Assembly: GCF_057098645.1 (NCBI RefSeq)
Contig: NZ_JBXSPU010000002.1
Direction: 5' to 3' (one strand)
DNA from: a plasmid
Length of the DNA: 64,000 nt
The position numbers are program-made. The number at the start of each line of letters is the position of its first letter. Position 1 is the first letter of the stretch. Below, piece by piece: positions 45,001-48,000 of this stretch.

Positions 45001-48000
45001 CTGAAGAAAAACGCGCGGGATATCAGTCTACTGAGGTATATGCCGGCCTGACACAGGCTAAGTGTGCCCGGGAATCGGTGAAAGTATAAAAAACAGCCTG
45101 TTACGGTATAAAAATCGACCATACAGAGAGGGAAACCACCGGAGTGGTGGGAAAAGCAGAAAGGCTCACGTGGCATAAGGCGTGGACAATGGTATCGACT
45201 GGTTTTTCAATTTCCTATACGTGAACCAGGTATTATGCTGCCGTTCAACAGTCTGGCGCATAAAATCCCGGATTAACTGAGAGCCATTACGGTCCATGCT
45301 TTTTGCAGCAGCCATAAAAGCATCCTTCAGTTCCGCGTCAATTCTTAAACTCATATTAACCTGTGCCATTTATCACCTCGTCATTACCACGTATATACAC
45401 AGTATATAACGATTCAGATATTGTCACTAGGATATGCCGCGCCAGCGGCATGGAAGGCGGTACGCTGTGGTTACATGTGATACCGGAGTAAAACCGCCGA
45501 AGCCCGGCGTCAGCCGGTACTGATTGATAGATTTCACCTTAACCATCCCCAGCCCTGCTAAGCCATACCCGCGTTCAGCCATGAAAGAGCTTCTGTGCGC
45601 AGTCGGAGTGGTCCCGACAAGGGTTTACCCGCAGTCGGGGCGTATCTCCGCGTTAGCGGGCCGTGAGGGCCGCTTACGAGCGTGTACTCAATACTTCCAG
45701 CCAGAAGACTGACAGCGATGATGATGTAGTTACAACATTCATAATTGAAAGCGACTCTGTTCCGGCCCGAAGGGCCGGGGCGGGGCCGCTTTTCAGTTAT
45801 GAGGGAGGGGCTTTGTGGTTTCGGTTCTGCGCTGGACCGGGGTTTTTCTGGAGGTTGTTTTTGTGTGTTGTAACTAAAGTGGCTCCGGTCGGGGCCCGCC
45901 GCTTGTGGTGTGAACCGCCCCGGAAATCCTGGAGACTAAACTCCCTGAGAAAGAGGTAAACAGGATGACTAAAAATACTCGTTTTTCCCCCGAAGTCCGT
46001 CAGCGGGCGATTCGTATGGTTCTGGAAAGTCAGGATGAATATGACTCACAGTGGGCGGCAATTTGTTCCATTGCCCCAAAGATTGGCTGTACGCCGGAGA
46101 CTCTGCGTGTCTGGGTTCGCCAGCATGAGCGGGATACCGGGAGTGGTGATGGTGGACTCACCACCGCTGAACGTCAGCGTCTGAAAGAGCTGGAACGTGA
46201 AAATCGTGAACTGCGCCGCAGTAACGATATCCTTCGCCAGGCTTCCGCTTATTTTGCGAAGGCGGAGTTCGACCGCCTCTGGAAAAAATGATGCCACTGC
46301 TGGATAAGCTGCGTGAGCAGTACGGGGTCGGACCGCTATGCAGCGAACTGCATATTGCCCCGTCAACGTATTACCATTGTCAGCAACAGCGACATCATCC
46401 GGATAAACGCAGTGCCCGTGCGCAGCGCGATGACTGGCTGAAGAAAGAGATACAGCGCGTATACGATGAAAATCACAAGGTATACGGTGTGCGTAAAGTC
46501 TGGCGTCAGTTGTTACGGGAAGGTATCAGAGTGGCCAGATGCACTGTGGCACGTCTCATGGCAGTTATGGGACTTGCCGGTGTTCTCCGGGGTAAAAAGG
46601 TCCGTACGACCATCAGCCGGAAAGCCGTTGCCGCAGGCGACCGCGTAAACCGTCAGTTCGTGGCAGAACGACCTGACCAGCTGTGGGTGGCTGATTTTAC
46701 TTACGTCAGCACATGGCGGGGCTTCGTCTATGTGGCGTTCATCATTGATGTGTTTGCCGGATACATCGTGGGGTGGCGGGTCTCATCGTCCATGGAAACG
46801 ACATTCGTGCTGGATGCACTGGAGCAGGCGTTGTGGGCCCGTCGGCCGTCCGGCACAATCCATCACAGTGATAAAGGTTCTCAGTATGTATCGCTGGCCT
46901 ACACGCAGCGGCTTAAGGAAGCCGGATTACTGGCATCAACAGGGAGTACTGGCGACTCGTATGACAACGCGATGGCGGAGAGCATCAATGGTCTTTACAA
47001 AGCGGAGGTAATACACCGTAAGAGCTGGAAAAACCGTGCAGAAGTGGAACTGGCCACACTCACGTGGGTGGACTGGTATAACAATCGACGATTGCTGGAA
47101 AGGCTGGGCCATATTCCTCCGGCAGAAGCAGAAAAAGCTTATTATGCTTCCATCGGAAATAATGATCTGGCAGCCTGAGTTCACAGATAAAATACTCTCC
47201 AGGAAACCCGGGGCGGTTCATTTCTTTTTAAATGAATGTAATTAAGTAGTTTAAAGGAGATATAAACAGGTGTTTAAAAGATATATTGCACCCTGTAAGA
47301 CTGGCGGCTGGCGCTTTATGAGATGAACGGTTGTAACCTTATCGGGAAGTCCCTTGCAGTTTAATGTGGATAAACAAAATTGCCCGTCTGTGAGACGTGT
47401 TTTGCATCAAAAACATGGGGAACGGATGCAGCAGAAGGTGGATGATGAGGTTGTTTTTTGTATGTAGCGCTGCTTTTTTGTGCGCTGCCGGGCTTCAGGC
47501 GTGTGGATGCCTTCGGCGCGGGCCGGATTATTCTGAGGAGGTCACTTTCAGGGGGAAGCTGTGGCCAGCCGGCTGTAATTACGGTTACGTGACAGAATCA
47601 TGCGCTCCTTCACACGACGCTCCACTTCGCGTTTTACCGCCTCACGATTGTTAGTGAAGCGCCCTTCCGAGATTTCACGCGTCAGCTGCCGTTTCACCAG
47701 GGTGACGATATCCTGACGTTCCCTGCTAGCATCACGACGCGCACGGGCACGCTTTATTCCCCGGGACTTAAGCTCTGTCTGGTAACTGCGGAAACGCTCA
47801 CGGACAAAACGCCAGGCTTTAGCTATCAGTTCATCCATACCCAGGGTATCCAGTCCCTGCTTTTTGCGCTGTCTGTTTTCCCATTCCACACGACTGCGGC
47901 GCGCAGCTGCCACTGCATCCTCAGACACATCAAGGGCGGCAAACAGCGCCGGTGTGAATGTGATATCGGTCGGAATGTTGCAGCCAATAAGCGGGTCATA

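Follow-up and report, generated by a model that had tools for sequence, protein, structure and literature searches.

A yacA stub and the repA4 region of an IncFII-type replicon between insertion sequences of a toxB/etp virulence plasmid

In this study, positions 45223-45910 of a 64-kb stretch of plasmid DNA (the window, by which we mean the whole stretch analysed) are best explained as two adjoining pieces of an IncFII backbone of the R1/R100 type, with IS elements on both sides, in a toxB/etp virulence plasmid, and we put the probability of this explanation as a whole at about 85%. The first piece is a stub of the antitoxin gene yacA, and the second is a spacer at 45370-45910 which corresponds, by homology, to the origin-distal "repA4" region of the IncFII basic replicon. 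The stretch is known biology, that is, ordinary plasmid backbone in an IS-scrambled copy, and no new element. Identities, homologies, the Ter cores with their orientation and strand-specific covariation were established directly. The features are listed below.

43534-45222, plus strand: IS91-family element, matching at 99.9% identity the one annotated in NZ_CP148340.1, with its transposase ORF at 43852-45051
45166-45369, minus strand: chimeric 67-codon ORF (yacA' plus 18 codons from IS91 DNA), from the ORF call and comparison with YacA
45223-45369, minus strand: codons 1-49 of yacA, the native 5' segment, encoding the ribbon-helix-helix DNA-binding half (49/49 identity to YacA)
45223-45226: tetranucleotide GAAC (GTTC on the other strand), a yacA-derived target of IS91 type adjoining the element's end
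45392-45408: TATATAC-aca-GTATATA, a perfect 7-bp inverted repeat from the inverted-repeat search, 23-39 bp upstream of the yacA ATG
45434-45522: block C, three conserved hairpins (45434-45451, 45456-45498 and 45504-45517, the last alternatively 45495-45509), then TACTG at 45518-45522
45594-45700, plus strand: block B, a strand-specific structured element with the invariant unpaired blocks GTCGGAGTGGTC, GGCGTATCTCCGCGTTAGCG and GCTTACGnGCGTGT
45723-45745, minus strand: Ter#2, predicted Tus-binding site, exact core GTTGTAACTA at 45727-45736, 17/23 match to TerB
45739-45802, plus strand: long imperfect hairpin between the Ter sites, including GTTCCGGCCCGAAGGGCCGGGGCGGGGCC, then TTTT (inverted-repeat search and covariation)
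45858-45880, plus strand: Ter#1, predicted Tus-binding site, exact core at 45867-45876, 18/23 match to TerB
45893-45910, plus strand: what IS629 has left of a conserved hairpin (ancestrally CCCGCCGCTTGCGGTGGG), from the alignment of relatives
45911-47220, plus strand: IS629/IS1203 (IS3 family), 1310 bp with TG...CA ends, between oriR and Ter#1
46246-46362: IS3-type (ALIL) frameshift pseudoknot within IS629, Rfam match
47221-47373, minus strand: remainder of oriR, from alignment to R100 and pO55, with the RepA-binding stretch and the AT-rich end touching IS629
47365-47373, minus strand: DnaA box TTATCCACA, within the oriR remainder
47548-48393, minus strand: repA, the IncFII initiator gene, 92% nucleotide identity to IncFII-annotated repA genes
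48466-48555: CopA antisense RNA gene, Rfam match at 93.5 bits

The assignment of the spacer is carried by its context. The IncFII order of CopA antisense RNA, RepA, DnaA box, oriR and then spacer is present and colinear with R100, and continuous homology of about 90% to R100 runs from repA through oriR to 45380, some 10 bp short of the yacA start codon. At least 5000 plasmid records match the spacer, with conservation of 90-99%. The spacer was correctly described in the initial annotation as GC-rich, rich in strong palindromes and adjoining IS629, which starts at 45911; GC content is 54.7% over 45370-45910 and rises to 59-60% in sub-blocks, compared with a value of 46.8% over the window, and ten inverted repeats were detected, including the palindrome quoted at 45748-45792, which extends to 45739-45802. 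Single-stranded DNA folds compared with shuffles gave z values of -2.8, -2.8 and -1.9. The comparison proposed there with the IncF leading region did not hold, as the DNA is contiguous with copA-repA-oriR instead; the leading region adjoins oriT, and a leading-region identity was rejected in view of the colinearity with repA-oriR. The repA4 region has been described as holding ter sites and as required for stable maintenance (PMC4398462). The spacer would act as a set of DNA sites, not as a gene.

With regard to the first piece, residues 1-49 of the ORF are 100% identical to YacA of pO55 (WP_000079946.1, full length 89 aa), and the 18 residues that follow are read-through into IS91. The ORF is therefore confirmed, at the level of sequence comparison, as an orphaned fragment of the type II antitoxin YacA of the yacAB module. 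The earlier view of a ribbon-helix-helix gene cut at its C-terminus by IS91 was borne out, except that the native segment has 49 residues and not 47, and the truncation does not fall at 45226: the junction reads ...CCTATACGT followed by GAAC, so that the element ends at 45222 and 45223-45226 belongs to yacA. The second IS91 copy in the window has the same end (TATACGT followed by GAAC), and in NZ_CP148340.1 the same IS end adjoins CAAG, 34 bp deeper into yacA; in all three the target tetranucleotide stands beside the element without duplication. IS91 target specificity is GTTC/CTTG.

Profile scores for the yacA' ORF were all below threshold, with 26.3 bits for NCBIfam RelB_DinJ (cut-off 45.65), 17.0 for Pfam RelB (22.4) and 16.5 for RHH_1 (20.5); full-length YacA likewise falls under the NCBIfam RelB_DinJ cut-off, and YacB, its toxin partner in relatives, exceeds the NCBIfam RelE/StbE threshold. 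In intact relatives, yacA-yacB directly follow the same spacer, with yacB overlapping the yacA stop codon. Here, 49 of the 89 YacA residues are kept, the toxin-binding C-terminal 40 are gone, and a tblastn search with YacB over the whole 64-kb window detected no yacB (best E = 0.16), in agreement with the claim that no toxin partner is present. With the IS91-family insertion, yacA lost codons 50-89 and yacB disappeared entirely, and with them went the function of an addiction module. The proposal of a remnant of a toxin-antitoxin or partition module thus stands in its first half; a partition origin was rejected, as the protein is YacA and the lost partner is a RelE-family toxin.

The yacAB module (RelB/DinJ-like plus RelE-like) would have been the ancestral neighbour after the replicon, and the IS91-family element, landing at the GAAC target, would have taken out its distal part. 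The remaining stub would supply at most the DNA-binding ribbon-helix-helix part, which could repress its own promoter through TATATAC-aca-GTATATA. This palindrome overlaps a weak -10-like TATACT and is a plausible candidate for the YacA operator, the only such site left in the spacer. Against this part of the explanation, the palindrome also occurs, with small changes, in R100, which carries tir in place of yacA, even though R100 retains a relic of about 20 nt of the yacA 5' end. The putative promoter mentioned earlier was not recovered, as a consensus scan found no sigma-70 site on either strand; by hand inspection, the sole promoter-like pair for yacA is GTGACA-15 nt-TATACT.

Within the spacer, Ter sites were called on the core (positions 9/10-19, GTTGTAACTA) together with G6, the G in position 6 of a 23-mer, and both sites carry the two. 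Ter#1 has G6 and is identical to TerB over positions 9-23, and Ter#2 also has G6. These are the only two exact cores in the 64 kb, and they lie inverted, with 130 bp between the cores. Polarity was calibrated on the TerB upstream of tus in MG1655, with the TerB sequence taken from that genome; TerB blocks clockwise forks. On this basis we infer that Ter#1 is oriented to arrest forks heading for oriR/repA (rightward in the window) and Ter#2 those leaving oriR (leftward), and Tus is predicted to bind at both. The scan for inverted Ter pairs returned about 23 IncFII-like replicons, including those of Pantoea, Erwinia, Rahnella, Buttiauxella, Yersinia pestis and Klebsiella. Together, the two inverted sites would form a miniature fork trap, in which Ter#1 would halt anything returning toward oriR/repA, keeping replication unidirectional, and Ter#2 would halt the fork after a full circuit of the plasmid, shortly before the leading-strand start. 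Arrest at Ter#2 would prevent strand displacement, rolling-circle replication and the formation of multimers.

In block B, 95.9% of the cells are paired, compared with 34-54% when the structure is slid, and changes on both sides, compensatory across enterobacterial genera, were recorded in 11 of 29 pairs; none of 500 shuffles reached this. G.T pairs number 45 on the plus strand versus 4 A.C. The covariance model built on it has one match in the window, at 128.7 bits, and the indels among relatives are not multiples of three. In R100, block B corresponds to 90,253-90,363 and block C to 90,418-90,525. Since the fold is specific to the plus strand and lies on the leading-strand template, block B was read as the IncFII G site, the primase-dependent start of leading-strand synthesis, for which geometry and strand bias make it the best candidate. 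Situated just past Ter#2, it would fold on the plus strand, which is the template of the leading strand when replication leaves oriR, and would prime the leading strand after a helicase loaded at oriR unwinds the stretch. The G site is reportedly about 400 bp away, which fits the roughly 420 bp between block B and the DnaA box once IS629 is taken out. Plasmid G sites are reported to share conserved blocks, and the F plasmid, in which we found a short homologue of the hairpin of block B with its 3' tail, fits this as well. The inter-Ter hairpin is similarly paired in 89.9% of cells, with 8 pairs changed on both sides, several near-invariant T.G pairs and a bias of G.T 163 versus A.C 10 that indicates a plus-strand fold; the TTTT after it is invariant. 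Such remaining plus-strand hairpins sit in the interval that would be expected to stay single-stranded until the round ends.

Several points tell against block B as the G site. The TACTG found 3' of it in R100, pO55 and a Klebsiella locus is TACTC in the window, and TACTC or another sequence in several divergent replicons. On its way from oriR to block B, a helicase loaded at the origin would first run into Ter#2 from the blocking side. Between the Ter sites, an invariant minus-strand ACTGAAAAGC resembles the G4 start ACTGCAAAGC; a priming site there was ranked low, as forks would be trapped inside and the hairpin folds on the other strand. Lastly, block C has the more G4-like layout, and the G site may instead be block C itself (45434-45522, template plus strand, start at the TACTG of 45518-45522), leaving block B some other role. 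Its three hairpins directly 5' of TACTG mirror the G4 oric, where hairpin I is followed by CTACTG; with IS629 taken out, 432 bp separate it from the AT-rich end of oriR, and it is placed just beyond the stop codon of R100 repA4; and divergent replicons preserve its stems through compensatory changes, the single-stranded fold having z = -2.8. Yet block C shows no strand bias (G.T 1, A.C 2), its TACTG is not conserved in divergent replicons, and its loops are variable where block B has long invariant unpaired blocks, so we regard this alternative as unlikely. On the minus strand, one hairpin of block C plus TTTT resembles a terminator.

The same plus-strand structures could be read as RNA. Block B and the inter-Ter hairpin with its U-run would then form a non-coding RNA of about 200 nt that runs antisense to repA4 and stops at an intrinsic terminator, in place of single-stranded DNA signals; both structures are plus-strand-specific with many conserved G.T(U) pairs, the TTTT after the long hairpin is invariant, and a small RNA had already been proposed. 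This is quite improbable. The Rfam scan of 44900-48800 at E <= 1 returned only the IS3 frameshift pseudoknot and CopA and no family for the spacer, no sigma-70 promoter was found by consensus on either strand, conservation is poor upstream of block B, where no -10 is shared, a Ter site would fall inside the RNA, and the plus strand is also the one predicted to be exposed as leading-strand template. Of the hallmarks of a small RNA, only the terminator-like hairpin with TTTT is present in the spacer. The earlier suggestion of a spacer holding mainly operators or a small RNA was not supported, given the empty Rfam and promoter scans and the identity of the DNA as the conserved repA4 region. We attach an equally small chance to block B and the inter-Ter hairpin with its T-run being an undescribed, conserved non-coding RNA shared by IncFII-like replicons, or an undescribed class of single-stranded DNA structure handling long-lived D-loops and Tus-Ter complexes, distinct from the classical G site; if it were so, the IS629 insertion would be a natural uncoupling of this element from oriR.

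Conservation of the spacer as a protein-coding gene, whether repA4 (128 codons in R100) or the 51-codon ORF at 45427-45582, is very improbable. The 128-codon frame is open in R100, RefSeq keeps a RepA4 family name, and the 51/52-codon ORF is annotated as a hypothetical protein in relatives; but the repA4 ATG lies inside the 44 bp deleted here, RefSeq flags repA4 as frameshifted and partial in one relative, and the 51-codon ORF has no family match and no conserved start codon. Relatives differ by 1-nt and 13-nt indels, and variation tracks base-pairing rather than codons; a coding explanation was rejected because of these indels and the covariation. The RepA4 product has reportedly never been detected. 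Hardly credible is the reading as decaying, non-functional intergenic DNA caught between two IS, which the IS elements on both sides, the destroyed toxin-antitoxin module and the displaced oriR might suggest, given the 95-99% identity to intact plasmids, two exact Ter cores and the intactness of every conserved stem but the clipped hairpin at 45893-45910.

At the right-hand boundary of the spacer, IS629 is flanked by GTG and TTT, and 44 bp of backbone, the R100 repA4 ATG included, are missing beside it; as there is no 3-4 bp target duplication and this backbone has been lost, the event was not a simple insertion, and the flanks together with the loss point either to recombination between IS elements or to a deletion next to the insertion. 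In divergent replicons, compensatory changes preserve the stem of the clipped hairpin, and a G.T recurs on its plus strand. The same IS629 junction was not found among 5,426 complete E. coli genomes. With 1310 bp in and 44 bp out, oriR is no longer contiguous with the ter/priming region; IS629 would have arrived later between oriR and Ter#1, placing the origin about 1.3 kb farther from these sites.

These results bear on annotation and on plasmid biology. Pipelines name the stretch "hypothetical protein", "RepA4" or "CopG family protein", while the real functional content of the spacer would be cis-acting DNA, namely two Ter sites and a priming signal, for which the G site is the putative assignment. 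The yacA' stub is dead and should not be counted among plasmid-stability systems. As oriR is split from the termination/priming sites and its distal edge may be clipped, the IncFII replicon may be weakened, which would bear on the maintenance of this toxB/etp virulence plasmid.

In comparison with known systems, the spacer occupies the same place after copA-repA-oriR as the repA4 region of R1/R100, with 90% identity to R100 throughout and the same inverted Ter pair and hairpin blocks. It differs in having IS629 between oriR and Ter#1, in the loss of 44 bp, among them the start codon of repA4 and a portion of a conserved hairpin, in its downstream neighbour (yacA' here, tir-pemIK there), and in reading TACTC where R100 has TACTG 3' of block B. 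The YacAB module of IncF and pINV plasmids is alike in the first 49 residues of YacA and in the upstream region, whereas this copy lacks the 40 C-terminal residues and yacB and has gained an 18-residue IS91-derived tail; one paper (PMC9455713) describes the pINV yacAB as inactive at one point of its text and as functional at another. With the chromosomal Tus-Ter trap of E. coli (TerA-J), the plasmid sites share an identical 10-bp core, G6 and the arrangement of two opposed sites with fork entry allowed and exit blocked, but they lie only 112 bp apart, beside the origin rather than opposite it, and differ at the flanking positions 1-5. The phage G4 complementary-strand origin (G4-type ssi, primase alone plus SSB) also has GC-rich template-strand hairpins and a short conserved single-stranded tail (hairpin, then TAC...), and in R100 and pO55 TACTG stands 13 nt past the block B hairpin as a G4-like tail. 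In contrast, the two are dissimilar in overall sequence, the covariance model of block B gave no match to the G4 origin, and the number and layout of the hairpins differ.

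The 540 bp between the yacA remnant and IS629, here called the spacer (45370-45910), are, judging from colinearity with the reference plasmid R100, part of the IncFII basic replicon. After IS629 was taken out, the window aligned to R100 without a break at 90% identity; the alignment extends from the IncFII initiator gene repA, across the DnaA box and on past the AT-rich end of the origin oriR, to 45380, where the homology stops ~10 bp short of the yacA start codon; it is this continuous alignment, together with the CopA detected upstream by Rfam, that places the spacer there. 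It corresponds to the repA4 stretch of R100/NR1, where R100 has a 128-codon ORF, and intact relatives display the order repA, ~370 bp, spacer, yacA, yacB. The 684-bp region 45227-45910 had matches in at least 5000 plasmid records, most of them at 90-95% identity. The initial annotation had looked to an IncF leading region, and this identity was ruled out, as the DNA belongs to the IncFII basic replicon and is colinear with repA-oriR of R100, not oriT-proximal. Its description of the spacer as GC-rich and palindrome-dense was borne out: G+C is 54.7% compared with 46.8% for the window, ten inverted repeats were found, including both that it quoted, and single-strand folds were better than those of shuffled sequences (z -1.9 to -2.8). 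Near-identical E. coli-type IncFII sequence (91-96%) was also noticed in assemblies labelled Clostridiales, Lachnospiraceae, Streptomyces, Sporosarcina and Collinsella, most likely through contamination or mis-binned contigs.

A scan for inverted pairs of the Ter core, using one genome per species, disclosed 37 loci, about 23 of which were homologous to the R100 segment (70-82% identity) and came from Pantoea, Erwinia, Rahnella, Buttiauxella, Izhakiella, Mixta, Citrobacter, Klebsiella and Yersinia pestis. Four conserved elements, (a) to (d), were recognized in their alignment, and are listed with two candidate Tus-binding sites, Ter#1 and Ter#2, and neighbouring features.

Features of the spacer and its flanks
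23-39 bp upstream of the yacA ATG: perfect palindrome TATATAC-aca-GTATATA, overlapping a -10-like TATACT
45434-45522: block C, element (d), three hairpins with stems kept by compensatory changes
45594-45700, plus strand folds: block B, element (c)
45727-45736, minus strand: Ter core copy of Ter#2
45745-45723: 23-mer of Ter#2, 17 positions matching TerB, G6 present
45739-45802, plus strand folds: long inter-Ter hairpin, element (b)
45858-45880: 23-mer of Ter#1, 18 positions matching TerB, G6 present
45867-45876, plus strand: Ter core copy of Ter#1
Adjoining Ter#1: hairpin, element (a), ancestral CCCGCCGCTTGCGGTGGG, stem maintained by compensatory changes, clipped by IS629 in the window
45911-47220: IS629/IS1203, 1310 bp, TG...CA ends, IS3-type frameshift pseudoknot

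In block B, 95.9% of cells were paired, against 34-54% when partners were slid, with compensatory changes in 11 of 29 pairs, a level reached by none of 500 shuffles; its unpaired stretches GTCGGAGTGGTC, GGCGTATCTCCGCGTTAGCG and GCTTACGnGCGTGT are invariant, and its central hairpin shows a 13-nt variation in length. The inter-Ter hairpin was likewise 89.9% paired, against 39-57%, with changes on both sides in eight pairs and several nearly invariant T.G pairs. Non-Watson-Crick pairs were overwhelmingly plus-strand G.T rather than A.C (163 against 10 in the inter-Ter hairpin, 45 against 4 in block B, and likewise in hairpin (a)), so the plus strand is the folding strand for these three elements.

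The perfect Ter core GTTGTAACTA occurs exactly twice in the window, both times in the spacer and in opposed orientations. Polarity was calibrated on TerB of MG1655, located on the plus strand just upstream of tus. Since TerB arrests clockwise forks, the blocked fork would be the one travelling 5' to 3' along the strand bearing GTTGTAACTA. Ter#1 is predicted to stop movement toward oriR/repA and Ter#2 movement away from oriR, the two making a putative trap which forks could enter and not leave. Loss of the Tus-Ter complex leads to rolling-circle intermediates, multimers and instability (PMC8347550, PMC7174701).

For replication leaving oriR away from repA, the plus strand would be the leading-strand template. 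Priming of the R1/R100 leading strand reportedly takes primase alone and occurs at a G4-type G site, a primase-dependent start signal, ~400 bp downstream of oriR near the repA4 3' end, and plasmid G sites are said to have in common three conserved blocks, which lie in two essential domains with a dispensable middle between them. Block B lies on the predicted template strand, holds a variable hairpin amid three invariant blocks, begins, with IS629 discounted, ~420 bp from the DnaA box and sits ~35 bp beyond Ter#2; its covariance model gave one strong match in the window (128.7 bits) and a weak one in plasmid F, with GGCCGTCAGGGCCGCTTACGAGCTTGTA in common. As these properties fit the description, we take block B to be the G site, with moderate confidence. 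Given the ~35 bp spacing, a fork coming back after one round would halt just before the 5' end of the strand that it had begun. The main alternative is that block C is the G site, for its layout is more G4-like, with three hairpins followed by TACTG, and its distance from the AT-rich edge of oriR is 432 bp; however, it showed no plus-strand G.T bias in the same alignment. Against block B as the G site, the TACTG 3' of it in R100 is TACTC in the window, and Ter#2 would stand in blocking orientation in the path of a helicase loaded at oriR. Plasmid F (L044 40683-40749, minus strand) has, ~3 kb from the RepFIB initiator gene, a short homologue of the block B 3' half, with GGCCGTCAGGGCCGCTTACGAGCTTGTA preceded by GCAGTCCCGACAGGG; this homologue could be a further member of the same family of primase priming signals. 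R100 has ssi signals, to judge at least from the title of Nomura et al. 1991, which PMC6854812 cites.

It is improbable that the plus-strand structures belong to an RNA ending at an intrinsic terminator: the strand bias and the TTTT after the long inter-Ter hairpin would suit one, but the spacer had no Rfam match, the promoter scan found none, and the divergent-replicon alignment holds no conserved -10 upstream of block B. The operators or small RNA first suggested for the spacer largely give way to putative replication termination and priming sites. Conservation of a protein, RepA4 or a 51-codon ORF annotated in relatives, is an unlikely explanation, as the repA4 start codon falls within 44 bp deleted here, relatives show frameshifts and 13-nt indels, variation tracks base pairing and not codons, and the short ORF has no family match. 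This ORF (45427-45582, minus strand), which RefSeq lists in relatives as a 'hypothetical protein', shares its position with the block C hairpins; it has no NCBIfam match, divergent replicons do not conserve its start codon, and it probably does not represent a gene.

The ORF listing of the region gave a minus-strand ORF of 67 codons (45166-45369), whose residues 1-49 match those of YacA, the 89-residue antitoxin of the reference plasmid pO55, without a difference and whose last 18 are translated from IS91 DNA. The toxin-antitoxin remnant proposed initially is therefore YacA, with 49 native residues instead of 47; its truncation by IS91 stood, while the boundary moved 4 bp, from 45226 to 45222, because GAAC at 45223-45226 is still yacA sequence. 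No part of the 64-kb window matched YacB (best E = 0.16), so the fragment is orphaned, as had been noticed. The N-terminal half of YacA is ribbon-helix-helix; matches to RelB/DinJ, RelB and RHH_1 all fell under curated thresholds, full-length YacA likewise under the RelB_DinJ cut-off, and YacB was above the RelE/StbE threshold. The stub would retain the DNA-binding half and have lost the portion expected to bind toxin. By analogy with other ribbon-helix-helix antitoxins, the palindrome TATATAC-aca-GTATATA is a reasonable candidate for an autorepression operator of yacA. One paper calls the yacAB of pINV inactive at one point and functional at another (PMC9455713).

The IS91-family element matched an annotated copy at 99.9%, and GAAC adjoins its end both here and at a second window copy (17993-17996). 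The neighbour of this end in another plasmid is CAAG, which lies 34 bp deeper into yacA. Both junctions fit the GTTC/CTTG target preference of IS91, and their difference indicates putative separate insertions into yacA in the two plasmids. The window copies share one orientation, 14254-17996 (interrupted at 14970-17098) and 43534-45226, each ending in TATACGT next to GAAC, and between them lie a SPATE autotransporter gene (20088-24071), a group II intron reverse transcriptase (24554-25780) and a 3009-codon toxB-like ORF (34226-43255); 14254-45226 looks like an IS91-flanked virulence block. IS629, correctly named as the other flank, has no target duplication at 45911-47220, and 44 bp of adjacent backbone, GGAGGTGCATATCTGTCTGTCCACAGGACAGGCAGTGAACAGGT, present in relatives, are missing, suggesting either a deletion beside the element or recombination among the IS629 copies of the window. 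Three copies were observed (1-1126, cut by the window edge; 7797-9106, minus; 45911-47220, plus), besides an 86% identical remnant near repA (49764-50033), and inter-copy recombination could explain both the missing duplication and the 44-bp loss at 45910/47221. A search of 5,426 complete E. coli genomes did not recover the junction. IS629 adjoins the AT-rich oriR end 153 bp from the DnaA box, leaving an oriR remainder at 47221-47373; if minimal oriR is 188 bp starting at the DnaA box, the distal origin edge may be clipped, with ~35 bp, equivalent to 47186-47221, gone.

The host is a toxB/etp/SPATE virulence plasmid. Beyond the replicon, the minus strand of 50547-54122 carries type II secretion (etp-like) genes arranged as in pO55: an A24 prepilin peptidase, followed by homologues of GspL and GspK. 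This arrangement places the window on a pO157/pO55-type backbone. R100, in contrast, has tir where yacA stands here, yet keeps a variant of the palindrome and, before tir, a degenerate ~20-nt relic of the yacA 5' end (R100 record L004 ~10570-10600, window 45350-45380; AAATAGGACAAGTTAAAAAT vs AAATGGCACAGGTTAATATG), suggesting that yacAB may be ancestral cargo after the replicon, later replaced by tir-pemIK. In summary, the finding is real but ordinary, an IS-truncated yacA beside the already known ter/priming region of the IncFII replicon, and published descriptions of R1 are consistent with the inverted Ter-pair trap seen here.
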